Source: Rhizophagus irregularis (lineage: Eukaryota). From it: a DNA stretch of 64,000 nucleotides. The position numbers and the translations under genes are program-made. The notes beneath the pieces were generated by a model, which saw only the letters and a list, made by a program, of their open reading frames with translations, was not told where the DNA came from and made no database searches. Below are positions 14,660-64,000 of this stretch, piece by piece. Where the stretch lies: positions 5,828,001 to 5,892,000 of the forward strand of contig NC_089432.1 of the NCBI RefSeq assembly GCF_026210795.1. Direction: 5' to 3'. Position 1 is the first letter of the stretch; every line of letters starts with the position of its first letter.

Positions 14660-15370
14660 TTTATTTATTTAAACATTTCATAATTTCACTTTTATTTATA
14701 TTTTATAAAATTTTATCATTTACTTAACATCATTTAAATTACTATTTTATCTTTTACTTCTTTAAAATACAATTTAAATTCTAATATTTTCAAAGTTCCA
14801 GCTTTGATTCTAAATTTCTCTATACATTCTATAATATAATCTATAATCACGATTTTATTTATAAACTTTCTATATCTTGCGCAAATAAATTGTGATCAAG
14901 GCTAGGGATTATTTATAATTGGGGCCGCCCAGGGTTAGGGTAAGGAAAGTTGATTTAGGCGGAAATACATATCCTTGAAGATAACGTAGATGTTGGGGTT
15001 TCTTAGGGTTAGGTAAGAAAGGTTGATTTAGGCTGAAACTTTTACCTTTGGAAGTTAGTTAGGGTTTAGTAGCATTAGCTGCGTAGTGCAATTTCAATAG
15101 CCACACTTTAGCCACAGTCAAATCACATGAATCACGTGCCCGAGCTTTTTTTGATGGTTACGCTGGGGGAGTTTATTATTTTGTTTCTAATCTCGTGGGT
15201 GGCTTATGCAAAAGAAACTGGAATCGGATGCGCAGTTGATATCTTGCCAAGATTTTTCTGAGTACGTCATTGAAATTAAAGTTTATCATATGACCAGTAG
15301 ATCTCACTTCTATTGGTTGGAAGTGTGAAGAGTCTTCACGATTATCATATGACATAGCATGTATCGTGAA

Positions 15371-32638: not shown

Positions 32639-32687
32639 AATCTGACTTTATAGATGCTAGCTTTTTTTCGTAATTATAAAAATTGGA

Positions 32688-37840: not shown

Positions 37841-39052
37841 TTAAATATTAGCTTTTAATTGAACTAATTGAATTTGCAAATTATTTTTTTCCATTTGATG
37901 TTCATTTTGAAAATTTTGATTATTAATTTCAGCAATTTTTTCTAATTTAAAGAGCTCTTGTTTTAATTTAAGAAATAGAATTTCATTTAAATCTTTACTA
38001 GTAAAATTATGTAAATGACTTGTATAGTATATTTGTGAATAAGAATTTACAATATGATTAATATAATTATTACTTGATGCATTTATAAATTCCATAATAT
38101 TGCTTTTTAATTCTTCATTAATATCTTCAATTTTCTTTTCTAAAGGAAAAGAAATCCAATTTTTAATAATATTTAAAATTTTTGATGCAGATGGCCTTTT
38201 TAATGGATCTTCATTCCAACATTTTTCCATTAAATCTACATAACATTGTGGAGTATTTTTAATAATTTCAGGACATTCACCTTTACAAATATCTAAAGCA
38301 AGTTGAAGATTATCATGTGCTTTATCATTAAATGGTGAAATTCCAGATGTAAATTCCCACATAATCATAGAAAAACTATATATATTACTAGCTTGAGTAT
38401 AAGATTGACCTTTTAAAATTTCAGGTGCCATAAATGGTATAATACCATAAATATTATTTAAGGATTTTGTAAGTTGGTGCAATCCTAAATAATCACTAAT
38501 ATAAATTCCATACATATTTTCTTCATATTCATGACATAAAATATTGTCATCATAAAAGTTATAATGAATAAGATCTTCTTTATGAATATCATTAAGACCA
38601 TCAATAATTTTATATAAATTAAATAATTTTTGTTTCCAGGTTTTTGTTATTTCTGTTAAGCATTTTCTTAAATTACCTTTATTTGTATATTCCATTATTA
38701 ATATATAATTCAAAGTATCTGGATTTTTTGTAAATCCATATATTCTAATAATTTTATCTGAATCAATAATTTTCCACTATAAAAAATAATTTAGTTTATT
38801 AGTATAAATAAATTATAATTAATATAAAAAAAAATACTTAATCATACTTCATTTAAACTTTCATTTGAATTATTAAGATAATCAAAATCTTTAAGAATTA
38901 CTTTGATTTCTTTATATTTAGCTTCATATATAGTACTAAATCCTTTTTTATCAGAATATTTATTAATATTTTCAAATTTATCATAAGGAATCCATTTTAA
39001 TTTATTTTTAGAAATAAATTGATCCATAATTTTGCTTCCACTATAATCATAT
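37841..39052 (-). CDS. Tyrosine-kinase-like (TKL) kinase domain of the expanded glomeromycete family; catalytically degenerate (pseudokinase or pseudogene)
   Basis: SGSKIMDQFI...LKWIPYDKFENI...GFSTIYEA...VILK|...IYGFTKNP...YILIMEY...GIIPFMAPEIL...SNIYSFSMIMWE...TPQCYVDLMEKCWNEDPLKRPSA. The HRD loop reads HYNFYDDN and DFG reads DYLG. Confidence 0.8.
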
Positions 39053-39654
39053 CTTTAAATATAAAAATAAAATTATATTAAAATTTAAAATGTAATTTAC
39101 AATTAAAAATTTAATATTAAATAATATAAATTACTTACTTTAAATAAAATTATAAAATTTTAATATAATAATAAATAATTAATTTAATTTTTATATAAGT
39201 TTTATTATATATAATAACTTATAACTTACCAACTAAATAAAGTTTAAAAGATTTAATAAGTAAATATTATATAACTATAAAAAATTAATTATATTAAATT
39301 AAAAAAATGTAATATATACTTACAAGCTAAAATATTTTAAAATAAAGAATTTAGTTAGTTTTAATTATATGAAAAATATTATATAAATATAATAGAAATT
39401 TACCATCTGAAATATTTAAATAATTTTTTACATAAAGAATTTGGTTAGTTTAAATTATATATAAATATTATATAAATATAATAGAAATTTACCTTCTGAA
39501 ATATTTAATAAATAAAAAATTTAATTAGTTTAAATTATATGTAAATATTATATAAATATAATAAAAATTAAATAAATAATTTATAACTTACCAACTAAAA
39601 GAAATTACAAATAATTGTTAAATAAAAAATTTAGTTAGTTTAAATTATATGTAA

Positions 39655-39903
39655 GACTATTTCAAACTAATTATTAGTTTAACATTCTTTTTGGTTGAAA
39701 AATTGAGAGGAAAGAAGAAAATAATAAATAAACATGATATTTAAATATATTAAAATTTTGAAAGTTTTTGGTAAAATCAGAAATATTTAGTACATCCAAT
39801 GGATATTTTAAATTTATGTAAATATATGTATTTAAATTATTTTAAAATTTTTAAAAATAGAGAAAAGAGAAAATGTTAAACTAAAAATTAATTTGAAATA
39901 GAC
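39655..39903. mobile_element. MITE with TAA TSD (PIF/Harbinger- or Zator-like), in an array intron
   Basis: TIR G(A/T)CTATTTCAAA(C/T)TAATT(A/T)TTAGTTTAACATT with TAA on both sides; removal restores TATATGTAAATATT. Confidence 0.75.
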
Positions 39904-40999
39904 TAAATATTATATAAATATAATAGAATTAAATAAATAACTTACAATCTATATTATTAAATAAATGATTTTTTAAATAAAGAATTTAATTAGTTTAAAT
40001 TATATTTAAATTTAAATATTATATATTACCATCTAAAATATTTAAATAATTTTTTAAATAAAGAATTTAGTTAGTTTAAATTATATGTAAATATTATATA
40101 AATATAATAGAATTAAATAAATAACTTACGAACTATATTATTAAATAAATAATTTTATAAATAAAGAATTAGTTAGTAGTTTAAAATACATGTAAATATT
40201 ATATAAATATAATAGAATTAAATAAATAACTTACAATCTATATTATTAAATAAATAATTTTTTAAATAAAGAATTTAATTAGTTTAAATTATATGTAAAT
40301 ATTATATAAATATAATAGAAATTTACTTTCTAAAATATTTGAATAATTTTTTAAATAAAGAATTTAGTTAGTTTAAATTATATGTAAATATTATATAAAT
40401 ACAATATAATAAAAATTTACCATCTAAAATATTTGAATAAGTTTTTTAATAAAAAATTTAGTTAGCTTAAATTATGCATAAATTTTATATAAATATAATA
40501 TATAAAATTAAATAAAATTAAATAACTTACGAACTATATTATTAAATAATTAAATAGTTAGCTTAAATTATATATAAATATTATAAAAATTAAATAAAAC
40601 TTACTTTCTATATTATTAAATAAATAATTTTTTAAATAAAGAATTTTAGTTAGTTTAAATTATATATAGATATTATATAAATATAATAGAAATTTACCAT
40701 CTAAAATATTTGAATAATTTTTTAAATAAAGAATTTGATTAATTTAAATTATATGTAAATATTATATAAATATAATAGAATTAAATAAATAACTTACAAT
40801 CTATATTGTTAAATAAATAATTTTTTTAAATAAAGAATTTAGTTAGTTTAAATTGTATATAAATATTATATAAATAAAATAAAAATTTACCATCTAAAAT
40901 ATTTGAATAATTTTTTAAATAAAAATTTAGTTAATTTAAATTATATATAAATATTATATAAATATATATATATATATTAAATAAAATTAAATAAATAAC

Positions 41000-43900
41000 G
41001 ACGCGTACACAGCAGACAGAGAATAACTACACGCAACAAAATGCAAATGTATATAACAACAACACATACAATTTAACATTCATGGGACACAACATTAACG
41101 GCCTGGGCCCCGATCATTCCAAACTTAATTTACTAATAGAATACTGTTCAAACAAAGGAGCTGATATAATAGGTATATGCGAAACAAACAGAGATAGAAA
41201 ACACGGAAAATTTTGGAACAAACAAACACTAGAATATACCTCTTTCTGGACTAACAAAGACAACAAGATAAAAGGGTCAGGAGTTTGCATAATGATTAAC
41301 AAGAAATGGGAAAAACACATTGGAAAAGTCAATAGAATAGGTGCATACTACATAGAAGCTTGGTTACTCTTCAAGAATTGCACGCTCATAGTAGGTGTAA
41401 TATACATACCACCATCAGACACGAAAATACAAAGTGAACTAACAAGCTATATTAAAAAAGAATTCACTAATCACAGTAAAAAAAATAGGTATTACATTCT
41501 GATAGGAGATCTCAACTCATATTTGGACAGAACACTAGATTATAGCGGCCCATCCAAACTCGGAAAAAAACCTTCAAATATAATTACGTGGTTAGACAAC
41601 GCCTTTTTTACGACACGTACAGAAAACTAAATCCCAAAAAGAGATGCTTCACATGGAAAAACAAAAATACATCAACTAGAATTGACTACATATGGGCGGA
41701 CCCTAAACTTGAAGCTAACATAAGAAAGAGTCACATATACCAGTCAATTGACATTACAGATAGTGATCACAACATCACACTCGCAGAAATCTCTTTCACT
41801 AATATAATAGTCACTAACAACAAAGGAGGTAGAAGAGCAGAAAAGAACTCAACACGTATTGTATATGACTATGAGAACACCACAAATGAACAGTGGAACA
41901 GATATGAAAAATACCTTAATGGCCTGCTGAAGAAACATAAAGCCTTCAGATACATAGAGAAGCCAATGGACAAAATGAGGATACACTAAATAAATTATGG
42001 GACATCATATGTAACTGCATACAACAGGCCGCGCTTAAACACATTCCACACAAGAAAATAGGCGGCGTCAAAACCAACTTTAATAGGAATTATAAAGAAA
42101 TCGAAAACTCCTCTAAAGAACGTAAGGACCTATTATATATTAGAAGTATAATGAGGAAATTATATAAAAACGAATTGAAGGGGGTAGAGTTACGCAACGC
42201 ATCAAAAGGAATTAAATCGTTCAACCAATGTTACGGAACCAACATAGCAGAGATAACGGAAGACACGGACTGGCACACATGGAAATGCGAAACGAGAAAC
42301 TGGCTGAAAATAGTCAGAAGAATAATTAAAATAAAGGACAAGGCAATCAAAGAAGCATCAATAAAGAAAAGGATAGAAGAAAGAAATAGTATGATTACCA
42401 AGGATCAACGGAAAATGATTAATAGCATCCTAGACAAAACATACTCAAAAATCAATCTGGACAGAATACGTATACTCACTGATACCCAAGAAGAAATATT
42501 GCCGAACTCTAAAGAAGAAGTCCATACAGAAGCGATTAACGCGTATTCATCCCTATTCCGCTCACGAAATCATAAATTCGAGAATCTCCCAGAACAGTGG
42601 AAAGAAATATATGAACCGCGAAAGACATAAACCCGGAAATTTACGAACACCTAAATGATATACCGACCGAACAAGAGTGGTATGAGATGCTCGAAACTAT
42701 GAACGATAAATCAGCACCAGGCATCTCTAACATCAGCTATAAATTAATCAAGAAAGCTGGTGCAAAAGCCAATGACTTGTTCAGGCAATACACAGGACTA
42801 CTGTTATTTGTTACAAAACATACCTATGAAATGGAAAATCTCTCAATTGTATCCGATCCCCAAGACTTATGATTGGGATTTCAACCTAGCAAGGACGAGA
42901 CCAATTTTACTTATTGAGTGCCTGCGTAAATGTGCAGTCAAAATTACCACAAAATGCCTAGGAAATATTCTCAGTAAACACGAAATTTTAAAAGGACCAA
43001 ATTACGCGGGATTACCAGGCGAATCTACATCAGCACCACTTTCAATAATTAATGGTATTCTAGAAGACGCTCGTGAAGAGAATAAGACAGTATGGATAGT
43101 GGCTCAAGACATGGCGAAAGCCTTCGACAGCGTCGGAATGGTTCCCTTGCAAAAAGCTCTGGAGAGAATTAGATTACCACCATCCACCATTAATTTCATC
43201 ATAAATATCTACAAAAACCGTAAGATCAAGATCATCACGGTGTACGGTGTAACCGATACTTTCACAGCATGCGATGGTATAGACCAAGGGGAGGTTATAT
43301 CCCCATTGATCTGGAGAATTTTTTACGATCCCCTCCTCCATAGAATACAGGAAGATGAAGCTTTAGGTTACTGCATGGAGCTAAATTGGCCGGACAACGT
43401 TTTTAATAATAATAAACGGAAAATAACAGTACGAACCGCCGTGTCGGCATACGCAGATGACACACAATGGATCGCCAAAAGTAAAAATGAAGCAGAAGAA
43501 ATTTTACTAATTGCGGACGAATTTTTTGATATCAATGACATAAAAATTAACGGGGAAAAAACTGAAATTATCGTTGTAAATCCGGAAGAAAGCAACGAAA
43601 ACGAAAGGTTCTTGGAGATAGGGAAAAATAACGACAAAGTGTTTGTCAACAAGGGATCAGTTCCAATACGCATTCTGGGAGTATGGTTCAAAGCAGACAA
43701 AGGAGACAAACACATAGAAGCTATAGTAAAGAAAGAGATATCGACAATAGTAGGGGCGATTAGACACAAACACATAACACATGCGCAAGCGATCTACATT
43801 ATTAACACTGTTTTACTCCCGCGACTAGAATATAGGCTTAAAACAACCGTGTGGGAAGACAAAAAATATGAGGAAATTTTTAAGCCGGTTATGCAAACAA

Positions 43901-46827
43901 TTAAACATAAGACGCGACTGCTCAGCAACTGTCATGACAACATTCTTCTCCACTCAGCACAAGGCAAATTAAAGAACCTGTGGAGAAATCAAATAGCAGC
44001 GCAAATATCAGAATTCCTAGTCACCATTAACTCGCAATCGAAACAGGCGGACGTAGTTAAAATGAGATTAAAAAAGGCGCAACTAATATTAAATATAACG
44101 TCTTGCATTTTATTGATGGAGCCGGACGTCACAGTTCTCAACAAAATGCCTAACAATCACGCCTACAACGTAATGAGAAAAGCACACGACTACTTATTTA
44201 AATTTCAACCATTAACAGATAACGAAGAATGGGACATACCACTAATAGGACCGAACGTAAGAAACTTTGTATATCAACAAGCGTCAAAGATGCACAGGAA
44301 AGACAAAGAATTCATTATAAGAAAAGCTGCATCTATGTCGATCTACGGTGCATTACAATTAGTTAATCAGGACGCTTCGGACACAGTCACATGGCAACAA
44401 ATCTGTGACATCAATAAAAGACCAGCAAGAGGCAGGACTCCGCAATGGTTTAATTCACTAACAGATATCATACAAAAGGCACCCAACCTAAAAAACTATT
44501 ATATGACGGATAAGGCGCCCTTTGACTCAGAAAATAGATTAGAAAATGATGGAATGTATTTAAAAAACGCACAGGCGTTCAGGATGCCAAAGAAGTTACC
44601 ATCTACAGATAATAGAAAAAAAGAATTCGTCCATATGCAACAAGATTATACGTTAACATTTGGACAAATTAACAAAAAACTTCAAACAGGTAAACATACG
44701 ATACAACATTGGACCACAGCTGACAGTGAGCAGAGAATGGACAACGAAGTGCCATATAAATTAATTAAGCGATGTGGAGGTTGCTCACTAAACGACAGAA
44801 GGGTCAACAAAGAAAACCGTGGTTGCTTCTTCAATAAAGACCGCACGTCGTTAACATGTATAAATAGAGTATCCAAATACCGAACTGATCCAGATACTAG
44901 AATAATCAAGGACATTATAGAAACCAGAGGCTACCCACAATTACAACAAAATGTGAGACATAGCCCCAGTTACATACAAATGGTAGACTATCGACACGGC
45001 TCTAATACAAAACACGTTAGTGAACAATGAAGCCTATGACACAGCATATAGCGTTGCTACAACAAATAAGATCAACCTTTAACCCATCTGACATGATTAA
45101 TATTTACACAGATGGCTCATTAACAAACCGCTTTAACAATAGTTCTAACACTTTTACAAAATACATGGGTACAGGCTGGGTGATACTGAATAGTAAAGAC
45201 GAAGTAATACTGGAGTGTAGTAGTTCAATCACAGACTGGCCCTCATCCACACGTGCAGAATTAGGAGCCATCTTGTCAGCTATATTGGTTTTACAAACAG
45301 GTCAGAAAGCAAATATCCTTACTGACTCACAAGCTGCTATAGATAGTATCAACTACATAAGAACAAATTTAACAAATGGAAAAAACAAAACAAGAATTTG
45401 GTGCAAATGCAACAACTACAGCATAGTAAGTTGTATAATTAACCTTATTGACAGCAAACGGTTAGAAATAAAGTTAGTAAAAGTCAAAGGTCATTCTGGA
45501 GTCAAAGGCAATGAAGAAGCAGATAGGGTAGCGAAAAATGATACTAATAGTTTAACTTGCATCAAAATTAAAGATTCACAACAAAAAGATTTAATATATG
45601 ACATTTATTGGGATGGTATAAGAGTTGACAGGCACATCAGAAAATTCATAGATAATTTGTGTGAATCCACATTAGACGCAGCATGGTCCCTCAATCGTAC
45701 ACATAGATCAGTATTTTCAGACACAACTGACACAATAGAAGAAGAAGTCACCTGGACATTATTTAAAAAAAACACAGGATCTAACTGCACAACATCAATG
45801 ATAAATGACAGATTTATCAAACACTTGAAACTTTTAAATTATTTGCTTCCAACTTTAGAAATCATGAAAGAAAGAAGATATGACTTATATGGAGATGTAA
45901 AGTGCAGGTTTTGTCTTGAAGAAAATGAAGATGATGATCATATGATATACTGCAAACAGCTCAGTGATAAATGGATAACTATAGCTAACAATACTGTATG
46001 TAAATGTAATCAAACAATCAAGAACTTCTTATTACAAGAAAAAAATATTCAATTAAGTCAGGAAGATATACAACAATTACTCATATGGAACAGAAACTTC
46101 TTTGCCCATACTATTGATGCTAATCTTGATTTACCCATTCCGCATATTCATTTAATGATAAGAAGTTTCTTTCCAAAAGAAAAATACAGGGAGCTCAAAA
46201 TTATTGTCAAGACAAAAAGAATAGCATTAACTATTGCAGCCCTCTTTCTAGAAGTATTTGTTAATGAATTTTACAATATTATTTGGCAACCACGTTGCAA
46301 GGTAACAGCAGAATGGGAGCATACCAAGGGTATAAAAAAACAAGACTTAAGAAAAAAACCATTAGCACATCAACGTATTGTATATAAAAGGATTCTAACT
46401 TTACAGACAGAGGATGGCATATATGATTTGGAAAAGAGGAAAATATTAAAACATAATGAACAATGGTCAATAGCATTAGAAAAAGCAAGACAATATATAA
46501 ATCAATTTATTAAAGAGGGAAATAGGGTATTTTGGAAAGTATATAACAACAAAAAAATATATAAATATAACATAACCCTTTTTTTTTCTTTGTTTAGAGG
46601 GTAGTGGAAGCTATACTGAAATCTTATAATATGGTGATCCTATATAATTCAATAGTAACTATAGAAGGATATAGGTGAATTTTATAAGGTGATGGTAGGG
46701 CACAGGAGCAATCTTATGGATGGGGAACTGGTTTGGAGTTTTAATAAATTAGTTATATAACAGATGCTTTTGTATTCTTATATATAATTAATAAACTCAC
46801 AAATTGCACTACCTTGCAAAAAAAAAA
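41000..46827 (+). mobile_element. Non-LTR retrotransposon (APE endonuclease-RT-RNase H-Zn finger), 5' truncated, frameshifted
   Basis: APE motifs HNING, DIIGICET, GDLN, RIDYIW, SDH. RT motifs QDMAKAFD, GIDQGEVISP, YADD. RNase H motifs IYTDGS, RAEL, TDSQ, VKGHSG..GNEEAD. Poly(A) tail and TSD AAAATTAAATAAATAAC. Confidence 0.95.
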
Positions 46828-47026
46828 AAAATTAAATAAATAACTTACAATCTATATTATTAAATAAATAAATTTTAAATAAAAATTTAATTAGTTTAAA
46901 TTATATATAAATATTATATAAATATAATAGAATTAAATAAATAACTTACTCCCTATATTATTAAATAAATAATTTTTAAAAAACATTTAGTTAGTTTAAA
47001 TTATATATAAATATTATATAAATATA

Positions 47027-47270
47027 GGATTTTGTTTTTTATCGCATCTGTAATACATTACATCCTGAATATTTCAGATAAAATTATATAATTCTTGGCA
47101 AAATAAAAAATATGTTAAAAAAACTAGGATGTAAAAATAGATTTTTTACAATTGAAAAAATTTTAAATTCTCATAATACATATAAAAAATATATAAAAAG
47201 AAAAAAAAATGTGATATAAATGATAAAAAAGGAATGCAATATATCACAGATACGATAAATTATAAAATTC
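47027..47270. mobile_element. Mutator-like MITE in an array intron
   Basis: Imperfect TIR of about 38 bp (TTTATCG.ATCTGT.ATA.ATT.CAT) and 9-bp TSD ATAAATATA. Confidence 0.75.
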
Positions 47271-48413
47271 ATAAATATAATAGAATTAAATAAATGACTT
47301 ACAATCTAAATTATTAAATAAATAATTTTTTAAATGAAAAATTTAGTTAGTTTAAATTATATATAAATATTTTATAAATATAAATAGTATTAAATAAATA
47401 ACTTACTAACTATATTATTAAATAAATAATTTTTTAAATAAAAATTTAATTAGTTTAAATATATAAATATTATATAAATATAATAAATATAATAAAATTA
47501 AATAACTTACGAACTATATTATTGAATAAATAATTTTTTAAACAAAAAATTTAGTTAGTTTAAATTATATGTAAATATTATATAAATATAATAAAAACTT
47601 ACTTTCTAAAATATTTAAATAATTATTAAATAAAAAATTTAGTTAGTTTAAATTATATAAATATTATATATAAACTTACCATCTAAAATATTTGAATAAT
47701 TTTTTAAATAAAGAATTTGATTAGTTTAAATTATATGAAAAAATATTATATAAATATAATAGAATTAAATAAATAACTTACGAACTATATTATAAATAAA
47801 TAATTTTTAAAGAATTTAATTAGTTTAAATTAAATATAAATATTATATGAATATAATAGAAAATTACCATCTAATATATTTGAATAATTTTATAAATAAA
47901 GAATTTAGTTAATTTAAATTATATGTAAATATTATATAAATATAATAGAATTAAATAAATAACTTACAAACACTGGTCAAATGATGAAGAATCGGTGTAT
48001 TAAGAGCCAGTTAAGAATCGGGACCAATCAGGTTTCGGTTCTTAACCGGCTCTTATTTTTTTTATCATTAAATAATCAGTATCCCGATAGGCCTATTGAT
48101 TCTATTATATAAGAAGCCGATAGATTCTAAACGTATATCAAATTTGATCAGCTGATAATAAGTAACAAATTGATTACCCCTTCGGATTTCCCGATGACTA
48201 ATAAATAAACACCCGATCTGTCATGATCTGTCATTAATTTATAAATAAGCATCGGTAAAACATCACATGTCCGATAATAATACTGATAGAACATTGATAT
48301 TAGACGGTGAGAAATTTAAAGGTTTAATAATAATTATTATATATTTATTTATTTGTATATTTATAATATTCATAATATAAAACATGATTGATATTACAGT
48401 ATTATTATAAATT

Positions 48414-51400
48414 TTAAATATGAAACTTTCTATTGATCGGTATTACTGACACATATTTCCGGGTTTCTTTTCGTCCTATTGAAAAAGAACCTTCAACAAA
48501 CCGACCCAGTATACTATGTACAGGGGATAATACAATCCCTGCTAAGATCATAAAATTCTTTTTTCCATAGTTCTATATTGCACAAATTTTCATCGCCATT
48601 AATTGTGCAATGAAATCTAGTCTTGTGATTTTCTGCCGGAAGGTACCACTTTACAAATGCTAGGGAATGATTTACAGAACCTTCCGGAAAATGTATAATA
48701 TGTTCAAAATAAAATTGAACAATACCGGGATAAGTATCTTTAGTATTATCATGGAGAAATTGGGATAATATTTTGGCCGATGTGACGTGCCTTTTAGAAT
48801 ACATTGACCCAAAAACTTCGGATCCAATTTTTAGTCGTCCATAAGTGTTCACTTTTGGTAATACCGGTATAGCAGAAGGAGCAGCATGGATATCTGATAG
48901 TGCTGCGAAATCTTTTCCATAGGCATTGCGGTAATATTCAACCAACAAATCTAATACTTCTTTTGAAAGGTTGGTGTCTATCCTTTTAGGATTAAGAAAA
49001 GTACCTGGAAAAGGTTCCGAACCTGTTCCGGCCATTTCTTCCACGTTTCTAGACATTGATAAAAATTCCCGGTAATCTATTCCATTAATTTCATCATGAA
49101 TTACAAGACTGCCGGTAGTTTCTTTCGGTGTAATTAGTGTGATACAAGTCGATAAATGTTGATGGTCTTGGGCGCATGAAGAAAACTGATCGAAGAGAGT
49201 TGAATTGAATGGTTTTTAATAATTCTGGTTCGATTCTTCTATTACTGCTATGATACGATCCTATAAATATAGACTATTTAATAAATTGATTTAATTATAT
49301 TGATAAGTTCGGAAATCTGGAATTACCTAATAGACCGTTCATGCGTTCGTAACTGAAACACCAGAACGCGTATAATGGTCCATAGTCTAACGCACAATGG
49401 CAAATATGTAAGCATAAATGTAAATTCGGCGTAATTTTTTCTGCGCCGTAATTTTCTTCAATGAGCTTTGCCACTTCTAGAAGATTTTTATGAGCTTCTT
49501 CTAACCCATTCGTTGTTATAGATCTGCATACAAGAATATTGCATGCACGGACAAAATTGGCGAGTATCAATTTATCCGATTCTTGAAGCAGATCCCACGT
49601 TATGGAAGTGGCATAAATTAAGATAAAAGTCTTCCATTGATCAGCGGTGAACCTTGAAAAGCCTTCACCTGTAGCAATTTTGTAGGGAATTCTACCGATA
49701 TCTGCTGGAACTTTTATTGCATTTGCCCTTTTTTGCATTGTTTCTAAATCTTTTTGTGTCAATCGGCCCTCCTCGATCCACAGTCTGGTCACGATCCACT
49801 TAGCAATACCCAAGAACAAACAATGCATTGGATCCACTGTGAGAAATCGCACTGAATCAAAGTACGGAAGTCGATACATTTCTGACCACCGTACTAAAGT
49901 ATTATGGACGTGACTATTTCTAGCATCTTTAGTATTGCAATTCAACCATTCTCGCGCATCCCTTCGAACCTGGTTGATATCTCTTTCGACAAACCATTCA
50001 TCAATATCATCAAATCCGCCAAAATTCGGTTGATTTCGATCATCATATTGAGCCTTTTTTAAGCATCTATGACAAGCCACTCGCGCAGAGATATGACCGC
50101 AGAGTTTTCTCGCGGCTGGAATATCACATGAGCAGCATATTACTGCGGCTCGAATAGATTTTCCGGTAGAGCTTTCGTATGTTTTCGATAGTTCAATCCC
50201 ATTCCATAACTCGATTAATTGATCGATGATGGGAGCTATATAATGGTTTAGTTGATGTAAATCTAGGCTCATTTGGCCCCGGAATTAAAGCCATTGTCAA
50301 AATATTTGATGGCTTGAATCTTTCATTTCGAGGCAGGTTACATATTACACCATATAGAGCTCCTATACTATAAGTTGAATTATCGAATGGTTGGAACCAG
50401 TCGATATTTAACATGATGCCTAAGTGGCGGTCTGAGACATCTTTCCGGAAAAATGGTATATTTTGACGATGATCCTGAAAGGTTTTCCAGATCTTTCCGT
50501 CATAAATATCATTCAAAAATTGAGAATCGTTACGGTCCGCCCATTTTCTACATAATTTCTCAAATCCTTTTCGATTATACATTAATTGTAATTGGTGTTT
50601 TAAACTAACAGTAGGGAACGTTAAAGAAGGTCGATAGATTGTTCCGTTAGTAACCGGAACTTTCTTAGCAAGTGTAGCATTGCACTTTTTTCTTTGATTT
50701 GCCATCGGATGATCCGGAAAATCTACATAGGTACAATGAATTGTGGCTGGAACTTGGTAAGGGTCGTTAGTTGATACTTCTGTTACATTATACAATTTGC
50801 AACACTTTTCACACGATGCGAATTTGACAATATGAGCGCAGACGCCAAGTTTTTTACGTGCCATATACAAAGATGTAGGAAAAGAATTGTACGTGTTTGC
50901 ATCCAAAAGAACCAAAAGATATCTAAAAAATTTGACTAAAGAATCGGTAGTGACATCGGATAACTTATATCTCTCTTGATATAATAAGATCCATAAAACA
51001 ATCCAATGAAAGTCTTCAGTAAAATCAATGAAGGAGGCTTCTGGATCATCACCGTATGTATTTTCCGGTGCGTCAAACCAGCCGGATGAAGATTCATTTG
51101 GTATTTCTTCGATAGGATCAAAGTCATTATCAACTTGATCGTTTTCTTCATCATCAGCATCACTAGTATCATCATCTGAAATACTTTGTTCAATAACAAC
51201 AATAGGGTATGATACATTCTTGGAATTTCCACTACCGATATGTTTTCGTTTATCTTTCGATTTGGCTTTTGATGATTTCGATTTTTTGGGAAGAAACGAA
51301 TAATTTTCCTCATCAACAATAGGTTCATGATGACCATCATCTGAATTATGTGATTCTATTTCCATTGGATCATTCAAGAGGTCTACCGATGTATCTTGGT

Positions 51401-51620
51401 TTAGGTCATCAGATGAAACTTGATTTAAATCTATAATTTCTTCAATAACTCCTCTTGGTCTAATATCCCTTTTTAAACTATGACTATTTTTTGTACGTGG
51501 ATCAACTATGTTACCTTTACATTTATTGCAATGACACGGAACTTTATTTGATGTTTTCTGTTTAAAATTATAGGATTTCTTTACAAAGACAGCTTTTGTT
51601 CTTCGGTATTTTCTCGTCAT
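48414..51620 (-). pseudogene. En/Spm-type transposase, frameshifted
   Basis: DIYDGKIW, LNIDWFQPF, ICNLPRNERF, IPGPNEP, CDIPAARKLCGH, VDPMHCLFLG, ITPNLHLCLH, YAFWCFSYERMNG, YPGIVQFYFEH across three ORFs. Confidence 0.9.
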
Positions 51621-52277
51621 TGTAAATAATAATATAAAAAAATTTTATTAAAAATGAATTTCCGGTTCTTCGATGAACGGATATATTAGTATGATTGATA
51701 ATTGACATTGTTGACCATATTAGGTTACTATCAATTTATTGTATTTATTGTATTTAAATCAATATAAGTTCCTTTATTTGAATCAAAAAAAGCTTATACT
51801 TCAATAGACTATTTCGTTATTTTCAATAGACTTATCGGCATGAAAAAAAAGGAAAAAAAAATTCAATCAAAAAAAGCTTATTTAATAGACTATTTCGTTA
51901 CTTTCGACAGACCTATCGGTCCTCATATGACAAAAAAAAAAATATATATAAAGACCCCTTTCTTCCCACGAACTGATTTTTTTTTCTCTGCCATATCATT
52001 ATACTTTGATCTAAATCATTAAAAAAAAATCGTAATCATTACATTTAATCTAATTATAGGAAAAAAAAAATATTATTAATAATCATAATATTTTAATTGT
52101 GGAAATAAATAAAGGTATAAAAGAACGTCTTTTACCTTATTGTATTGTTTTTTTTTTATCCTTTAACAAATTTTGGTAAAAATGCGTGGAAGAAGACCTT
52201 TCAAAATTAAGAAAATAAGCTTAAGACGCTTATCTACAACAAATTTAACCTCTTACAACCATCATCAAACAAACTCA

Positions 52278-53792
52278 ATGTCACCACATCGTCGTCACCG
52301 TTATCGTTCAAGAAGGAACAAGTCTAGACGTTCTTCTTATTCTAATTATTCAGATAGTCGTTCACCAAGTCAACAAAGAGGACGTTCGACTACAAGACAT
52401 AATAGGACTAATTATTCAGATAGTCGTTCACCAAGTCAACAAGGAGGGTGTTCAACTACAAGATATAATAGGAATGATGGTATGGTTATAATATAATAAT
52501 TATGTTTTTTATTTTACATATTTTGAATATAATGTCATGATTTCAATTTACAGATATCGAAGCCCTAAGCAGAGCTATCACTGCACTTACGGAAGAAGTT
52601 CGGACCCCTCAAGAAATCTCAAACAAGGAACGACCTACAAGCTGAATGGCCATCAACCCCTCAGACAACACCAGTTCCAAGGAGTAGACAAAATACATCA
52701 CTCACGCCAGAACCAGAAACTGGATATCGTCGACGTGCTCGGGTTTTGCTTGAAGATATGGACGAAGATCAATATAAGTTGTTCCATGTGAGTATCAAGT
52801 AACTATTGGTTATTCAGCAAAATTTTTTAATCGATATTTTTTTATAAAATTAAGGATGAGGTCGTGCAGATACTTAGCGGTCTCGATGATTCATTGCAAT
52901 TGGATCATACCAAAAAATGGGTAGAAATTGCACCACACGTTTCAAAACACATCATGAAGGAGATCGCTAGAGTCTTGACCGGAAGGTTTCAATACAAAGA
53001 TATAGAATTGAAATGGGTCTTACAGAATCTACACCGCCATCGTAGAGAAAGCTGGATGGTTAGCCTTGATCCGGATAAGACTAGATTTGAAAAGAAGAGA
53101 AAAGGAACGAATTCTCGAAGAAAAGATGTAAGTACTGAAGACATCCGAAATATGAAATTAAAATCCTTGATCTTGTTCCTTTCTATCCTAATCACTAATA
53201 TCTGATTGCAATAGAAAAAAGAGCGACGTCAGAAAGGCATCGAGCATATGTTCAATATTAATGATGCCTCGCTTAAAGAATTTCAACCGTCATCATTATC
53301 TTGGGAAGAATTCAAGGAAGACTGTGAAACCATATTTAATGAAGGAGGATTCCACAGTGATGAAGTTTCTGAAACTGATGAAGAGCTCACCAAAAAAGAA
53401 ATCGAAGATCATGTTCGTCCTAAGAATAAAATTGAAACGGATAAACATGTTCTTCATGTTTATGACAAGCCCTGGAGGTCACGTCGTGTAAGTATCAAAT
53501 AAAACAATTGTATAGTTATTGTATACATTTGCTTATTATCTCTTTTTCATTTTTATAGGGACGTAAATTACTTCGCTTGGCTGACCGAGTTGGTGAGAAA
53601 ATAAGTCATGTAAAACTTTCACGACATCGTTGGTATGATGATAAAACGTGGATCGACGAGTCAAAACCGCCTGAAGGTGCCCCTGATTGGTCGATATCAC
53701 AGTCGTACGGATCCGACGTACAACCACAAGATGAGATCGATAATATCGATAATATTAATGATGAACCTAACGAACTTGATGAACAGGTTTAA
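52278..53792 (+). CDS. Second, intron-containing gene of the EnSpm element (SR-rich N-terminus)
   Basis: Exon chain 52278-52478, 52554-52787, 52855-53127, 53215-53487, 53560-53792, bounded by GT/AG (boundaries approximate). HSDEVSETD...PWRS motif. Confidence 0.6.
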
Positions 53793-54719
53793 TTAATGCA
53801 TTAATGCAATGTTAGATTTAAAAGAGCACGTATATTAATAATAATTTGTAGTTTATATTTTTATTACGCAAGAATGATTTGTAGTTTATTTCTATATAAC
53901 AACGATTAAATATAGCAAGCAAATGTATTACTGTAAAATTGATTAGTATATTGCTATATAATATATTGCAACGAATAGTAATAAATTGATTAAAACAATT
54001 TGAAATATCGTGATTTCAATTACTGCCCGGCGTGTATTGTATCGTTTAACGATACTTTATGATAACCCAAATAAATACTTAAATATTATATAAATATAAG
54101 TAAAATATCAGAAATCCGATATTAACATAATATTTATCCGATTTGCACCTTATAGTTTATTAAAACTTCAAAAGATTCAGTTATTAATTTGGTAAATATT
54201 GGGCGTTTATTTGTAAAATAACAGAAACCCGATTCTTCACCAATAGAAATCCAATACTTATGAAGTATTTATGCCCGGTTGTATCCAGAAATGCAACAAG
54301 AACCTGAGCCCAATCGGGAATAAGTATCGGGATTGTATAATATATATATCTGTGAAGAATTAGTGAAGAATCGGGTACCTGAATTTTCTCTGATATGTTG
54401 TCATTCGACCAGTGAAACTATATTATTGAATAAATGATGTTTTAAATAAAGAATTTAATTAGTTTGAATTATATGTAAATATTATATAAATATAATAAAA
54501 ATATACCTTCTAAAATATTTAAATAAAAAATTTAGTTAGTTTAAATTATATGTAAATATTATATAAATATAATAAAAATTTACCATCTAAAAATATTTAA
54601 ATAATTTTTTAAATAAAGAATTTAGTTAATTTAAATTATATATAAATATATAACAAAATTAAATAAATAACTTACTTCCTATATTATTAAAATAAATAAT
54701 TTTTAAATAAAGAATTTAA

Positions 54720-55174
54720 GGCATGATCCGCCTAAGAATGGCAGCAAACTACTATATAAATTCGGGGGAAAAAATTAAAACCAAAAAAAGGCATTATCTC
54801 ATGATCCAGTGATTGGATTTTGATGATCCCTTTTCGAGTTTATAGCTTTCGATGCACTCTTCAAAACAAAATCGAAATTGGACTGGTATATCACAATATA
54901 ATCACAAAAAATGATTTTTTCCAGGTAAATCTTCCGATGCCCCCGATAAATCTTCCGTTGCCCAGAAAAAATTATATTTGCAATTATCTTGTGATATATT
55001 GGTCCAATTTTAAATATCTTTTTTTTATTTTAAAGAGTACATCAAAAGCTATAACCTCAAAAAGGGATCATTAAAATCCAATCACTGGATCACGAGATAA
55101 TGCCTTTTTTTGGTTTTAATTTTTTCCCCCGAATTTATATAGTAGTTTGCTGCCGTTCTTAGGCGGATCATGCC
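54720..55174. mobile_element. Foldback MITE with very long TIRs at a TTAA site (Kolobok-like if the termini are GG)
   Basis: GGCATGATCCGCCTAAGAA...TTCTTAGGCGGATCATGCC, with arms complementary for roughly 200 bp. The TSD reads as TTAA, or as TA with AGG termini. Confidence 0.85.
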
Positions 55175-56039
55175 TTAATTAGTTTAAATTATATGTAAAT
55201 ATTATATAAATATAATAAAATTAAATAAATAACTTACTCCCTATATTATTAAATAAATAATTTTTTAAATAAATAATTTAATTAGTTTAAATTATATATA
55301 AATTATATAAATATAATAAAATTAAATAAATGACTTACCAACTATATTATTAAATAAATAATTTTTTAAATAAAGAATTTAGTTAGTTTAAATTATATAT
55401 AAATATTATATAAATATAATAGAAATTTACCATCTAAAATATTTGAATAATTTTTAAATAAAAATTTAATTAGTTTGAAATTATATATAAATATTATATA
55501 AATATAATAGAAATTTACCATCTAAAATATTTAAATAATTTTTTAAATAAAGAATTTAATTAGTTCAAATTATATATAAATATTATATAAAAATAATAGA
55601 AATTTACCATCTAAAATATTTAAGTAATTTTTAAATTTAGTTTAAATTATATATAAATATTATATAAATATAATAGAAATTTACCATCTAAAATATTTGA
55701 ATAATTTTTTAAATAAAGAATTTGATTAGTTTAAATTATATACAAATATTATATAAATATAATAGAATTAAAATAAATAACTTACGAACTATATTATTAA
55801 ATAAATAATTTTTTAAATAATGAATTTAGTTAGTTCAAATTATATGTAAATATTATATAAATATAATAGAAATTTGCCTTCTAAAGTATTTGAATAATTT
55901 TTTAAATAAACAATTTAATTAGTTTAAATTATATATAAATATTATATAAATATAATAGAATTAAATAAATAACTTACTCCCTATATTATTAAATAAAGAA
56001 TTTTTAAATAAAGAATTTAATTAATTTAAATTATATATA

Positions 56040-56204
56040 GAAATAATGTATTTACCGCACCCTGCGTTACAAATTTATATATATTTGTATGTTTATCATT
56101 TGCCATTTTAAGGGGGTACAGTGTATAAACTAAAGATTGACATAAACAATTTACAAAAAAAGAAGGATGCGTTGTAATGCAGGGTGCAGTAAATAAATTC
56201 ACTC
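56040..56204. mobile_element. Mutator-like MITE
   Basis: TIR core TATTTAC(C/T)GCACCCTGC(G/A)TTACAA and 9-bp TSD TTATATATA. Confidence 0.75.
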
Positions 56205-57514
56205 TTATATATAAATGTTATATAAATATAATAAAAATTAAATAAATAACTTACGAACTATATTATTAAATAAAAATTTAGTTAGTTTAAATTATATATA
56301 AATATTATATAAATATAATAGAAACTTACCATCTAAAATATTTGAATAATTTTTAAATAAAGAATTTAATTAGTTTATAAATATTGTATGAATATAATAG
56401 AATTAAATAAATAACTTACAATCTATATTATTAAATAAATAATTTTTTAAATAAAAAATTTAATTAATTTAAATTATATATGAATATTGTAAAAATATAA
56501 TAAAATTAAATAAATAACTTACTCCCTATTAATAATTTTTTAAATAAAAAATTTAGTTAGTTTAAATTATATGTAAATATTATATATATATAATAGAAAT
56601 TTACCATCTAAAATATTTGAATAATTTTATAAATAAAGAATTTAGTTAGTTTAAATTATATATAAATATTATATAAATATAATAGAATTAAATAAATAAC
56701 TTACAAACTATATTATTAAATAAATATTTTTTTAAATAAAGAATTTAGTTAGTTTAAATTATATATAAATATTATATAAATATATACTAATAGAAATTTA
56801 CCCTCTAAAATATTGAAATAAAGAATTTAGTTAGTTAGTTAGTTTAAATTATATATAAATATTATATAAATATAATAGAAATTTACCATCTAAAATTTTT
56901 GAATAATTTTTTTAAATAAAAAAATTTAGTTAGTTTAAATTATATATAAATATTATATAAATATAATAGAAATTACCCTCTAAAATATTTGAATAATTTT
57001 TTAAATAAAGAATTTAGTTAGTTTAAATTATATATAAATGTTATATAAATATAATAGAAATTTACTCTCTAAAATATTTAAATAATTTTAAATATAAAAT
57101 TTAGTTAGTTAAATTATATGTAAATGTTATATAAATATAATTGAATTAAATAAATAACTTACGAACTATATTATTAAATAAGTTTTTAAATAAAAGATTT
57201 AGTTAGTTTAAATTGTATATAAATATTATATAAATATAATAAAATTAAATAAATAACTTACATACTATATTATTAAATAAATAATTTGAAATAAAAAATT
57301 TAGTTAGCTTAAATTATATATAAATACTATGCAAATATAATAGAAATTTACTTTCTAAAATATTTGAATAATTTTTTAAATAAAGAATTTAGTTAGTTTA
57401 AATTATATGTAAATATTATATAAATATAATAATATAATAGAAATTTACCATCTAAAATATTATTTAAATAATTTTTAAATAAAGAATTTAGTTAGTTTAA
57501 ATTATATGTAAATA

Positions 57515-58126
57515 GAAAAAAATTATTTCTTATCTGGGTGATTTCTCACCCCTTCTGAATTTAATATATAAAAATGACATCATACTAATTATTTACCGAT
57601 TATTTTCAAAAGAAAAATAATGTAATTTTTGACAAAAAAAATCTTTTAAAAATAAAACTTAATTCGTGATCTGGATGTCGATCAGTGAAAATTCGTAAAT
57701 AATAAGAATTTGCTGTTGCCACAAAGACAAGTCATTTTTTAATTTTCATCGGAAGGGAAATTAATAATGCATTCAAAAGCTGTGGTTTTTCTGCTATAAA
57801 ATACTGTGTAATATTTTCATTTTGTTGAACTGGATGCAGTGATAGATATCTTACCCACAAAAATGCCAATTAAATGAATTTCATTAATGATCTACAAAAT
57901 TTCACCCCATTTTTTGATAGTAATTTTCACTGATTTATAACCAGATCTCAAATTAATATAATTTTTGTATACTTTAAAATTACAATTTATGGGTAATTTT
58001 AACTGCTCTACAAATTTACTTAATACCTTAAGAAAGGTTATAAATACCATTTTTGACATTTTCAATAATTTATGATTTGGGGATGAGAAATATTAAATCT
58101 TACCCAAGGTGAGAAATAAATTCATC
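57515..58126. mobile_element. Mutator-like MITE, degenerate
   Basis: 10-bp TSD TATGTAAATA and imperfect TIR (TTATTTCT.A.CT.GG). Confidence 0.65.
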
Positions 58127-59860
58127 TATGTAAATATTATTATATAAATATAATAGAATTAAATAAATAACTTACAAACTATAAATAAAGAATTAGTTAG
58201 TTTAAATTATATGTAAATATTATATAAATATAATAGAAATTTACCTTCTAAAATATTTGAATAATTTTTTAAATAAAGAATTTAGTTAGTTTAAATTATA
58301 TATAAGTATTATATAAATATAATAGAAATTTACCTTCTAAAATATTAGTTTAAATATTTTTTTAAATAGTTAGCTTAAATTATTATATGTAAATATTATA
58401 TAGATATAAGAAATAACTTACTTCCTATATTATTAAATAAATAATTTTTTAAATAAAGAATTTAGTTAGTTTAAATTATATGTAAATATTATATAAATAT
58501 AATAGAATTAAATAAATAACTTACGAACTATATTATTAAATAAATAAATTTTTAAATAAAAATTTAGTTAGTTAAATTATATATAAATATTGTATAAATT
58601 AATAGAATTAAATAAATAACTTACGAACTATATAATTAAATAAATAATTTTTTAAATAAAGAATTTGGTTAGTTTAAATTATATATAAATATTATATAAA
58701 TATAATAGAAATTTACCCTCTAAAATTTTGATAAATAAAAAATTTAATTAGTTTAAATTATATGTAAATATTATATAAATATAATAGAATTAAATAAATA
58801 ACTTACGAACTATATTATTAAATAAATAAATTTTTAAATAAAAATTTAGTTAGTTTAAATTATATATAAATATTATATAAATATAATAGAAATTTACCCT
58901 CTGAAATATTTGAATAATTTTTTAAATAAAGAATTTAGTTAGTTTAAATTAGTATATATAAATATTATATAAATATAATAGAAATTTACTATCTATGATA
59001 TTTGAATAATTTTTTAAATAAAGAATTTAGTTATTTAAATTATATGTAAATATTATATAAATATAATAGAATTAAATAAATAACTTACTCCCTATAATAT
59101 TAAATAAATAATTTTTTAAATAAAGAATTTTAGTTAGTATGTAAATATTATAAATATAATAAATATAATAGAATTAAATAAATAACTTACGAACTATAAT
59201 TATTAAATAAATAATTTTTTAAATAAAAAATTTAGTTAGTTTAAATTATATGTAAATATTATATAAATATAATAGAATTAAATAAATAACTTACAAACTA
59301 TAAACAATTTTTTAAATAAAGAATTTAGTTTGTTTAAATTATATGTAAATATTACATAAATATAATAGAATTTAAAATAAATAACTTACACCCTGTAATA
59401 TTATTAATTAATAATAATTTTGTAGTAAAGTAATTATAATCAATTATATAATTCTATATAAAAATTAAAATATATACAGTAACTTACAATCTAATTATTT
59501 AAATAAATAATATTATTAGTTTGAATTATATAAATATTTTTAAATTAATATAAAATTAAATACTTACTTGCTATAATATCAGTGATTATTAAACAATTAT
59601 AATAATGAAAAATTTAGTTATTTGAATATCATGTAAAATATAATAAAAATAAATAACTATTAACTTACTAACTATAATAACGTTAATAATAAAATAAATT
59701 ATTTGGTTATATAAAATATAATAGAAGTAAGTAATTTAATTATCATTCCAACAAGATATCCTATTACTTACGAGCTAATATATTAAAATAATTTTTAATG
59801 ATTAGTTTAAAAATTTAAATCATGTGTTTATTATTTACAAGCTGATAATTATTTTCTTAC

Positions 59861-59983
59861 CTTTATCTTCCTCAATTCTTGAAACTAGTTTTATTATATT
59901 GCAAATTTGTTTATAAAAATTTTAGATAATTTGTATTAGATTTATTTATATTCATGCTATATGTTTTTACCTTTATGAGCCAT
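59861..59983 (-). CDS. Putative first two exons of the micro-exon/kinase gene (59971-59983, 59861-59884)
   Basis: ATGGCTCATAAAG|gtaaaa...aactag|TTTCAAGAATTGAGGAAGATAAAG|gtaaga encodes MAHKVSRIEEDK, with both introns phase 1. A CCAAT box lies upstream (GATTGG near 60112). Confidence 0.6.
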
Positions 59984-61992: not shown

Positions 61993-64000
61993 TTATATAT
62001 CATTATAATTTAACCATTGTTGATACATTATATCATATTGATTTTCTACATCACATTCTGTTCTTTCTAATATGTTTTCAATATTCTCTTCTTCATCATT
62101 TTCATCATCATTATTATTTTCCTTTTCAAATAAAGGGATTTCATTTTCTTTTAATGATGTCGACAATCTTTGATCCAAACTCTTAATATTTTTCTCAATT
62201 CCAGATGATAAATAATCAAAACAAAAATTACATTTATCATCATATAAAGTACTTAAACATTCTTTTAAAAACTGGGTCCACAAAGTAAAACAATTCCATT
62301 AGATAAATCTATACTATTTGATAATAAACAATTATTTGCATCACAAAATTTATCATCTGCTGGTATTTTTTGTGTATTCCAGCCTAAAGGAAGTACCTTT
62401 ACATCCACTTCAATATCAAAACTTGGAAGATAAAATTTTGGATATCTATCATTATTAATTTGTTTTGTATTTCCTATATTCTGATGAATCTTATCAAATA
62501 TTGAGAATAAAAATAATGAAACCTTTTTTCTAAAGATTTTAATTCTTTAATTTGAGACTTAGCTGGATTTCTCAAATTAACAAAAGAATTTTTAAAAGGA
62601 TTATTATTTCTTTCAGCATCAATAATTTTTGCTTTTTGTATAATTTGTAACTCTGAATTTGATTCTGCTGTTTGATGCCTTAAAGAGCTATGAAAATTTT
62701 CAACAAAATAATCATTAAAAATTGGTAAATTATTTTTTAAAATATTAATTATTGGATGATTTTTTGAAGTCCAATAAAATACATCACTTAAAAACATAAG
62801 TGGTACTTTATTATAATTATGTCTTCTCAATCTTTGAAATAATATCCAAATTTTTACAGTACTTTCTAAATATCCTTCAAAAAATCCACTTCTAAAAAGT
62901 ATTGCATATATATCAAAATAAGTGGAATAGAATTATCTAATAAATCTATCATCATTTGATATTCTGCATCTTTTAAATTTCCAAATCTTTTTGTAACAAT
63001 ATCACGAATATTTTTCCATCCATGATAAGTTAAATGTAAAATAAGATTGATTACTGTTTGTTTTGGTTTTTGAGATAATATTTTTTCTCCAAATAAGTTA
63101 TGATATAGCATCTCAAAAAAGAAATGATATGTTTGAAATAGTATTTCTCTGCTGTTTAAAGAGACATGAAGTGGACCTATCATAGGAATTAAATTTAACA
63201 CTTGCTCTGGAACTCCAGAATTAATGCCTTTCTTAATTCTAAGTGTTATAGCTCTTCTTATATTTACTTGTCCTGGCCAATCAGCAATTACAGGAATGAT
63301 AAAATTATTTAAATAATTTTCTTCAATATTTTCTAATCTTTCAAATGCTTTAAATACATAATCTAAACATTCAATATAATCCTTAAGTACTATGTAAAGG
63401 ATGCAAAATAAAGTCTACTAATTTGCTATTAGACATTGATCTTAATTCATGGTAATTTTGAATTCTACCATCATAATTATGAATATTAAGTAGTTCAACT
63501 CTATTTTCATAAGAATCTTCAATTAAAAAATTTTTCCATAATTCTTTTTGCATATAATAACTTTTACCTAATTGATTCATAAAATTATTTTTAATGTTAT
63601 TAATAATTAATCCAGAATCAATTCCTTTAGGATTATGTATTGAAAAATTATTTAATGAATAAAATGGTATTTTTGGAATTTTAGTATTTGTATTCAATAA
63701 TATTGTTACAAAATGATAAATATTGTGAGTTTGTAACAATGTTGGTTGATTACGCCTATGAATATTATGGTAATCATCTATATTAAGAATAAACATATTT
63801 TCTATATTTTGTAAACAATAATTATCTACAGTTTGTTGGTGTTCATTTGAAATAAAATTTTTTTTACGATTTACTGTTTTTCTTGTTACTGAAACTCCTA
63901 TATTTGCCAATGTATCAATAGAAGAAGAAGAAGCTCCAGAAGTTTCCAAGTATGATCCAATATCAACTTTAATTCCATTAATATATTTATTATTAATGCT
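61993..64000 (-). pseudogene. Frameshifted transposase-like gene (possibly DUF6589/Zisupton-related); 5' end outside the window
   Basis: NIDDYHNIH...PVIADWPGQ...IGPLHVSLN...RRHNYNK...FVENFHS, with a Cys-rich C-terminus, over at least four frame segments. Confidence 0.55.

Follow-up and report, generated by a model that had tools for sequence, protein, structure and literature searches.

The NACHT-ankyrin (nank) genes of the truffle Tuber melanosporum are diversified by alternative splicing of multiple or even tens of codon-sized exons, according to passages in four papers that cite Iotti et al. 2012 (PMC4986451, PMC10197012, PMC13449251, PMC3689799), and by these passages the architecture of a codon-sized exon array is already known in fungi. 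In this study, a stretch of 64,000 nucleotides from Rhizophagus irregularis (contig NC_089432.1, positions 5,828,001 to 5,892,000; hereafter the window) was analyzed, in which an apparent satellite on the minus strand lies upstream of a TKL kinase domain. An earlier note on this DNA had read the satellite as an array of 3-nt exons of a kind not described in fungi; the citing passages on Tuber show that this novelty does not hold. Like the nank genes, the window has tens of 3-nt exons in tandem, flanked by canonical splice sites, and the two systems share tens of 3-bp exons per fungal gene and an expanded family proposed for non-self sensing. Unlike the NACHT-ankyrin genes, which are of the NLR class, the host gene is a TKL kinase (in some loci with SPRY-TPR upstream), the fungus belongs to the Glomeromycota, and the array forms the N-terminus with up to ~70 exons. 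Moreover, the arrays of the R. irregularis type are in phase 1, with codons that span two exons, and one subfamily has a terminal 1-nt exon. Alternative splicing is what the passages report for Tuber, whereas the sequence evidence obtained here points to in-order splicing and shuffling at the DNA level. The array works like the Tuber nank type but is not a member of it.

In the micro-exon genes (MEGs) of Schistosoma, the exons are mostly 6-36 nt long and the proteins are secreted. Like the MEGs, the array is a run of short frame-preserving exons able to vary a protein; however, each exon here equals one codon, the intervening introns are repeats homologous to one another, and the product is an intracellular kinase. 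A MEG has most of its coding sequence in symmetric micro-exons and a secreted product, whereas the micro-exons here make up ~70 of ~460 codons. Shuffling of repeats with high internal conservation in fungal NLRs, and exon shuffling in brown-algal NB-ARC-TPR genes, are described in passages of two of the above papers (PMC10197012, PMC13449251). As far as these passages go, near-identical units recombine there as here, and a candidate sensor is diversified under diversifying selection; unlike in those systems, it is the intron that is conserved here, and what varies is a payload of one codon. Isolated 1-nt exons are spliced in Arabidopsis (PMC4674806) and in Fusarium CYP621A (PMC12940212), according to excerpts of these papers. 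Such exons bear on the phase-converting exon of a relative described below (locus L132), but they are single exons, not arrays.

Literature searches gave no description of such arrays in Glomeromycota or in kinases, supplements and most subscription papers being outside their scope, and a keyword check of the R. irregularis long-read genome paper (PMC10234402) found nothing on them. We favor, with moderate confidence, the reading that the repeat is an array of intron-plus-3-nt cassettes in a Glomeromycota TKL kinase gene, that in-order splicing would give a variable N-terminal segment diversified mainly in DNA and predicted to form a recognition surface, and that the copy in the window is no longer functional.

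Structure of the array

The minus strand between 39040 and 59990 was scanned for NAG and a donor separated by k nucleotides. The scan found 78 matches at k = 3, compared to 2-12 at all other k from 0 to 15. In the rest of the window, k = 3 gave 17 matches and the other k gave 11-31, i.e., no excess. Seven matches fell inside GC-richer transposon sequence and were dropped as chance matches (70/77 left). A CTT candidate micro-exon at 59841 was also rejected, because a 19-nt intron would be needed. The array totals 71 units, namely, 69 clean YAG units, an ambiguous last unit at 39137 (acceptor AAG, triplet TAA), and a TTT exon split by a transposon. There were 19 distinct triplets among the 70 units, and a CTAAY branch-like site was present within 60 nt upstream in 55 of them. 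The donors were mainly GTAAGT or GTAAAT, with one GCAAAT, two GTAATT, one GTATAT, and one GTAATA. Therefore, the count of 71 units, the fixed 3-nt AG-to-GT spacing, the same 19 triplet values, the branch point in most units, and the single GC donor of the earlier note were all recovered.

Of the 69 unit-to-unit intervals, 62 were 66-107 nt and seven were 274-6636 nt, the latter because of insertions; apart from these, no interval points to a decayed unit. The array is thus discontinuous, and approximately 14 kb of its 20.8-kb span is transposon DNA.

All exons described below are on the minus strand. Exon 1 (59971..59983, 13 nt) carries the ATG and ends in phase 1, and exon 2 (59861..59884, 24 nt) is in phase 1 at both sides, both read from the sequence. 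The spacing scan placed micro-exons 1-18, of 3 nt each, at 58176..59774; the introns of the first five have diverged, and the conserved Trp codon of the family comes from exons 4 and 5. It further placed micro-exons 19-32 at 56255..57451, 33-41 at 55238..55980 (with the GC donor at 55877), and 42-44 at 54507..54678, followed by seven at 47303..47870, two at 46849..46952, eleven at 39946..40893, and five at 39230..39594. The damaged last unit (39132..39140) aligns with the 1-nt phase-converting exon of L132, with AA instead of AG at the acceptor.

Contigs of sequencing run X1 that aligned to 39317-39397 contained units with the triplets ATC and AAT, which are absent from the window, and one GTGAGT donor. 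Their sequences suggest further arrays in the organism sequenced.

Stop codons are avoided in the in-order reading

A pattern scan of metagenome contigs gave at least 118 loci (here and below, locus counts are drawn from the matches listed). From 115 new loci, 32 with a GC content of ≥28% were set aside, as were 5 more with short periods or identical units, and the 78 kept were AT-rich with a period near 95 nt. They contained 624 matches at k = 3, compared to 0-4 at the other k from 0 to 12. Eight of 90 chains lay within longer ones and were excluded; the codon counts were made on the remaining 82, which are non-redundant and comprise 527 units from 64 loci.

When the window micro-exons were joined in order in phase 1, none of the 68 junction codons was a stop, compared to a mean of 3.0 in shuffles (P = 0.02); the phase-2 reading had 14 stops. 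In the 82 chains, there was one stop among 445 in-order phase-1 junction codons. Shuffling within arrays gave 17.1 on average and never so few in 3000 rounds, and the phase-2 reading had 93/445. Each stop codon was depleted (TAA, 1 versus 10.4; TAG, 0 versus 8.1; TGA, 0 versus 4.8), but the sense codons CAA, AAA, and GAA, which have the same last two bases as TAA, were not. Furthermore, junction Trp codons, in which one exon supplies the T and the following exon the GG, were enriched (46 versus 26 expected). The encoded array segments consist of 14% Asn, 12% Asp, 10% Trp, and 10% Tyr and are also rich in Arg. The window units are thus likely, by their sequence, phase-1 coding micro-exons before a TKL kinase.

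Alternatively, the array might be a non-coding satellite that arose by tandem duplication of an intron end with a cryptic donor and is removed as one intron. In L095 (position 1706) and L165 (position 3363), the first kinase exon itself starts with AG-NNN-GT, so a unit could arise by chance; such a start is also a possible seed for the origin of the cassettes by tandem duplication. Moreover, inclusion of the triplets was not seen in RNA. Contigs of four presumed RNA runs were compared, at 80% likeness, with the kinase exons and with the array units closest to them. In the matches listed, the kinase acceptor showed neither a joint nor a loose end, but these matches were mostly paralogues and one run contained unspliced sequence, so the comparison carries no weight for or against inclusion. 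Nevertheless, the stop avoidance is specific to neighbors, a Trp codon across two exons is conserved, the 3-nt spacing is fixed, and the splice sites are more conserved than the introns. A non-coding satellite would have no coding constraint and uniform divergence along the unit, and the arrays have neither property. We therefore regard a non-coding satellite as highly improbable.

Gene context of the related arrays

The kinases of the metagenome array loci match Glomeromycota proteins. Among the 78 loci, 22 have at least 350 nt downstream of the array, where 17 have a kinase of the same family on the same strand, 1 has another kinase, 1 has an SH3-like exon, and 3 have insertions, so that 18/22 run into a kinase. 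The homologous repeats thus lie inside genes with the spacing conserved (624 versus 0-4), contrary to the intergenic repeats with unconserved GT/AG and spacing that the earlier note had named as the case against itself. The same-family kinase exon starts in phase 1 in 14 of the 17 loci, as read manually and checked. L089 contains a whole gene in frame, consisting of an ATG exon, 18 micro-exons, and the kinase. Upstream of the arrays, ATG exons ending in phase 1 were found or, in three loci, a TPR exon, preceded in L154 by a SPRY-like exon.

The second junction codon is Trp in 11 of the 13 arrays with a script-parsed upstream exon. It belongs to a motif, A-L-x-[D/E/A/N]-W, which is wholly micro-exonic in the window and partly encoded by an ordinary exon in relatives; the A-L-x residues come from three micro-exons in the former and from an ordinary exon in the latter. 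The preservation of this motif across different exon layouts is suggestive as an independent check on the coding reading. In the wider family, a CxxC..CxxC zinc module precedes 125 of 227 equivalent positions. Most array genes do not have it, but L147 and L152 keep it.

In L136 (582-1700), an SH3-like and an ankyrin-like exon come after the array end, and other host architectures may therefore exist.

Exon triplets diverge faster than introns

Divergence was compared in non-overlapping pairs with 87-99.5% identity, of which six were used and one had too few exons. In the six collinear pairs, 19 of 108 exon sites (17.6%), 76 of 2715 intron sites (2.8%), and 0 of 144 AG/GT sites differed (odds ratio for exon versus intron, 7.4). 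Exon bases thus diverge approximately 6-fold faster than intron bases, and the comparison of rates proposed in the earlier note gives the order splice sites, introns, exon triplets. In the window, the deviation from the class consensus was 64/189 (34%) for exons, 135/1386 (9.7%) for introns, and 1/252 (0.4%) for splice dinucleotides. The synonymous-like exon position was the least variable one in the metagenome units (0.16-0.27 versus 0.32-0.57).

The window units have flanks of two classes, which agree across the exon in 65 of 69 units and are independent across the intron (18/16/14/13), and no block of four triplets recurs. The simplest reading of these patterns would be crossover in the shared intron core, which moves single-codon cassettes, together with diversifying selection on the triplets.

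A targeted process, such as exon-limited templated conversion or a route linked to reverse transcription, could also have altered the triplets in place of ordinary mutation and selection. Units with identical outer flanks differ by 0.11-0.67 per exon site, compared to 0.05-0.09 at held-out intron sites; the intron rates are exceeded even at the synonymous-like position. However, neither a specialized enzyme nor a template was found close to the arrays, the LINE of the window is an ordinary insertion of later date, and crossover flanking old, diverse triplets can yield the same pattern under selection. Targeted change is, in our opinion, improbable, and crossover with selection is preferred.

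In-order splicing and exon skipping

The earlier note proposed that the array is a combinatorial diversifier acting through splicing. The phase-1 coding micro-exons and the hypervariable triplets of that proposal are supported, but free skipping of exon subsets as the selected mode is not, since joins formed by skipping show no depletion of stops. In the 82 chains, such joins had stops at the shuffled rate (lag 2, 14/363 versus 13.9; lag 3, 14/281 versus 10.8; three exons skipped, 6/211 versus 8.0), in contrast to the 17-fold depletion in in-order joins. Since stops are avoided only between true neighbors, selection sees the full in-order product.

That exon skipping is nevertheless the main diversifier, one gene giving many isoforms with new junction codons, is rather unlikely in our estimation, though it would be compatible with shuffling at the DNA level. 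Every subset of the exons preserves the frame, passages citing Iotti et al. 2012 provide a precedent in the Tuber nank genes, and the simulated cost was tolerable, with 83% of the products stop-free at a skipping rate of 5% per exon and 42% at 50%. Among 67 single-exon skips in the window, 4 would make a stop. However, the conserved Trp depends on two specific neighboring exons, in addition to the missing depletion in skip joins. As a source of added variety beside in-order splicing, skipping is possible, because each skip product would be weakly selected and most stay open.

The downstream kinase and the state of this copy

On the minus strand downstream of the array, the first kinase exon (38846..39052) needs phase 2, and the second (37841..38776) encodes the TKL kinase C-lobe and the tail. 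The domain (PF07714/PF00069) and the leader WTSGN..D.FI..WIPY fit the expanded TKL kinases of Glomeromycota. At the catalytic-loop position, which we take to be that of the HRD motif, the window kinase has HYN, with Asn in place of the Asp of the HCD found in most relatives; it is predicted from this replacement to be a pseudokinase. Its sequence matches with 100% identity that of an annotated kinase-like protein of this species (P0003), the public model of which begins at the first Met inside the kinase exon and leaves the array outside, in line with the expectation that gene prediction would miss it. A protein search with the C-lobe gave 806 relatives at E ≤ 1e-20, and 24 of the 120 best-listed ones share the internal-Met start with P0003.

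The layout given in the earlier note, with the array between ATG exons and the TKL kinase, is correct, but a phase mismatch was overlooked in it: exons 1 and 2 end in phase 1, yet the kinase exon at 39052 needs phase 2. In L132, the closest relative, a 1-nt exon with a normal AG is followed by a phase-2 kinase exon, and the aligned site in the window reads AA. An ancestral state in which the last unit was a TAA exon was considered and rejected, because the kinase would be left out of frame.

Seven insertions break up the array: a CACTA-like element in one exon, a LINE in one intron, and five smaller ones. The CACTA/En-Spm-like transposon (47971..54414, minus strand, 6.4 kb) has 14-bp inverted ends starting with CACT and a Transposase_21 domain, and it splits the TTT micro-exon, which is itself the 3-bp target duplication (54415-54417 and 47968-47970). 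The LINE retrotransposon (41000..46829, plus strand) encodes an endonuclease, a reverse transcriptase, and an RNase H, has a poly-A end and a 15-bp target duplication, and is antisense within an array intron. A non-autonomous element with terminal inverted repeats and a TTAA target duplication (54720..55174) also lies within an intron. The window copy probably cannot reach the kinase in frame, and we are fairly confident that it is non-functional. The lost acceptor of the 1-nt exon, the split exon, and the two 6-kb insertions would have disabled it recently.

Arrays in other eukaryotes

Two other eukaryotes also had codon-sized exon arrays, one in phase 0 and one in phase 2. Scans of viral contigs gave one match, a coding repeat of identical units, and then none, and two scans of prokaryote genomes gave 43 and 48 loci. 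The first 43 were rejected as short chains of mostly identical units, except for three contigs of a binned eukaryote; the same three recurred among the 48, and three others were parsed. The three contigs (L020:12-1211, L026:592-1838, and the first 1.1 kb of L042 on the minus strand) have a GC content of 18-20% and are binned in a 'Mycoplasma' genome. They contain 30-38 three-base exons with introns of ~30 nt and a phase 0 reading. L026 and L042 encode C-x-C, a variable aromatic/charged stretch, and then C-P-H-K-G, and the L020 array precedes a RING-like exon. The kinases of this bin have in-frame TGA, and a TGA triplet occurs among the Trp codons of the array; the host is thus likely a eukaryote that reads UGA as Trp. 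An rRNA search for it found only a 1.5-kb small-subunit gene, most likely the bacterial one of the bin. In L127 (1319-2251), which is from a eukaryote with small introns, ~27 three-base exons with diverged introns of 23-27 nt lie downstream of a trypsin-like domain; phase 2 is the only open reading, and the array ends in C-x-x-C.

Other sequences in the window

An open reading frame at 62477-62932 on the minus strand, ~2.5 kb upstream of exon 1 of the kinase gene, has a weak RiboL-PSP-HEPN match (E 7.5e-5, under the curated cut-off). Two 24-copy arrays of a 51-bp unit (15504-16741 and 28634-29865) stand in inverted orientation and bracket ~12 kb; they probably mark the two ends of a large DNA transposon. 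Remains of retrotransposons, comprising gag, a zinc knuckle, 147-bp repeats, and a fragment of an integrase, were found at 8988-14668 and 32661-33896.

Discussion

In the proposed mechanism, each unit consists of an acceptor, 3 nt, and a donor, and the ordinary flanking exons of the relatives are in phase 1, so that the first base of each codon comes from one exon and the last two from the next. The stop avoidance and the cross-exon Trp codon suggest that the in-order join is translated. Unequal crossover or conversion in the shared intron core would add, remove, and swap cassettes without a frame shift, and diversifying selection would fix new triplets. The segment, rich in Asn, Asp, Trp, Tyr, and Arg, occupies the place where many family members carry the CxxC..CxxC zinc module. 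In what is the weakest step, it may bind a variable partner and gate the kinase.

Several points weigh against this proposal. First, Tuber genes of the same architecture are reported, in the passages cited (PMC4986451, PMC10197012, PMC13449251, PMC3689799), to undergo extensive alternative splicing, and a transcript-derived N-terminus showing the join was not found in protein searches. These comprised the C-lobe search described above, a TPR-exon profile (134 matches, the best 120 listed, 8 examined in full), a first-kinase-exon profile (3024 matches, the best 150 inspected upstream of the first motif), and an exon-1 profile, the single match of which was a read-through of genomic DNA. Second, phase 0 is also almost stop-free (1/527), so the phase call rests on the flanking exons and on the neighbor-dependent depletion; 3 of the 17 same-family kinase exons are in phase 2. 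Third, the arrays share ancestry, and the P values of the shuffles and Fisher tests are therefore optimistic, as they overstate independence. The units were chosen by AG and GT, and the splice-site invariance in the metagenome loci is thus partly built in. When 39 double-length gaps (versus 483 normal intervals) were checked, most contained intact units missed by the filter, but approximately 5 lost splice sites (in more than 500 units), one 2-nt exon, and one 6-nt exon were also found, and a few gaps were left over. Fourth, the synonymous-like position is not the least variable one in the window (0.49-0.67), and it lies above the intron rates, so point mutation and selection are not the whole account. 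Fifth, the last GTAAGT donor has no AG just before it in L147 (~560) and L152 (~740) as well as at 39137 of the window, all with phase-2 kinase exons. This may reflect either shared decay or a non-canonical acceptor; in the latter case, the window copy may not be dead. The site at 39137 may also be an assembly error rather than a loss. Finally, the recognition role is a prediction; by analogy with the Tuber receptors, non-self or parasite recognition would be its likeliest context.

To our knowledge, neither the role of the R. irregularis kinases nor the basis of non-self recognition in these fungi is known. The genome paper reports 2,533 kinase genes in this species (PMC10234402). A kinase subfamily with fast-changing, Trp- and Tyr-rich N-termini concealed within 'satellite' DNA would be a concrete recognition candidate, and the public models of the array kinase genes would be truncated. 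With these arrays, an architecture known from one truffle report that found little follow-up extends to a second phylum and to a different class of protein. Stop counts in neighbor and skip joins provide a test, requiring sequence alone, that separates in-order from combinatorial splicing, and the arrays raise the question of how the spliceosome joins up to 70 consecutive 3-nt exons.

As a bolder and tentative possibility, which we hold to be clearly less likely than not to be right in full, arbuscular mycorrhizal fungi would have kinase receptors of a hidden family, each with a variable segment comparable to that of antibodies; these receptors would be missed by all current annotations and used in vegetative non-self or parasite recognition. 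Crossover within identical introns would exchange their one-codon cassettes among alleles, nuclei, and paralogues. Exon skipping would recombine the cassettes further and, in phase 1, make residues found in no genomic order. If so, the one-codon arrays in phases 0, 1, and 2 of unrelated eukaryotes would represent a recurrent, convergent device of diversification.

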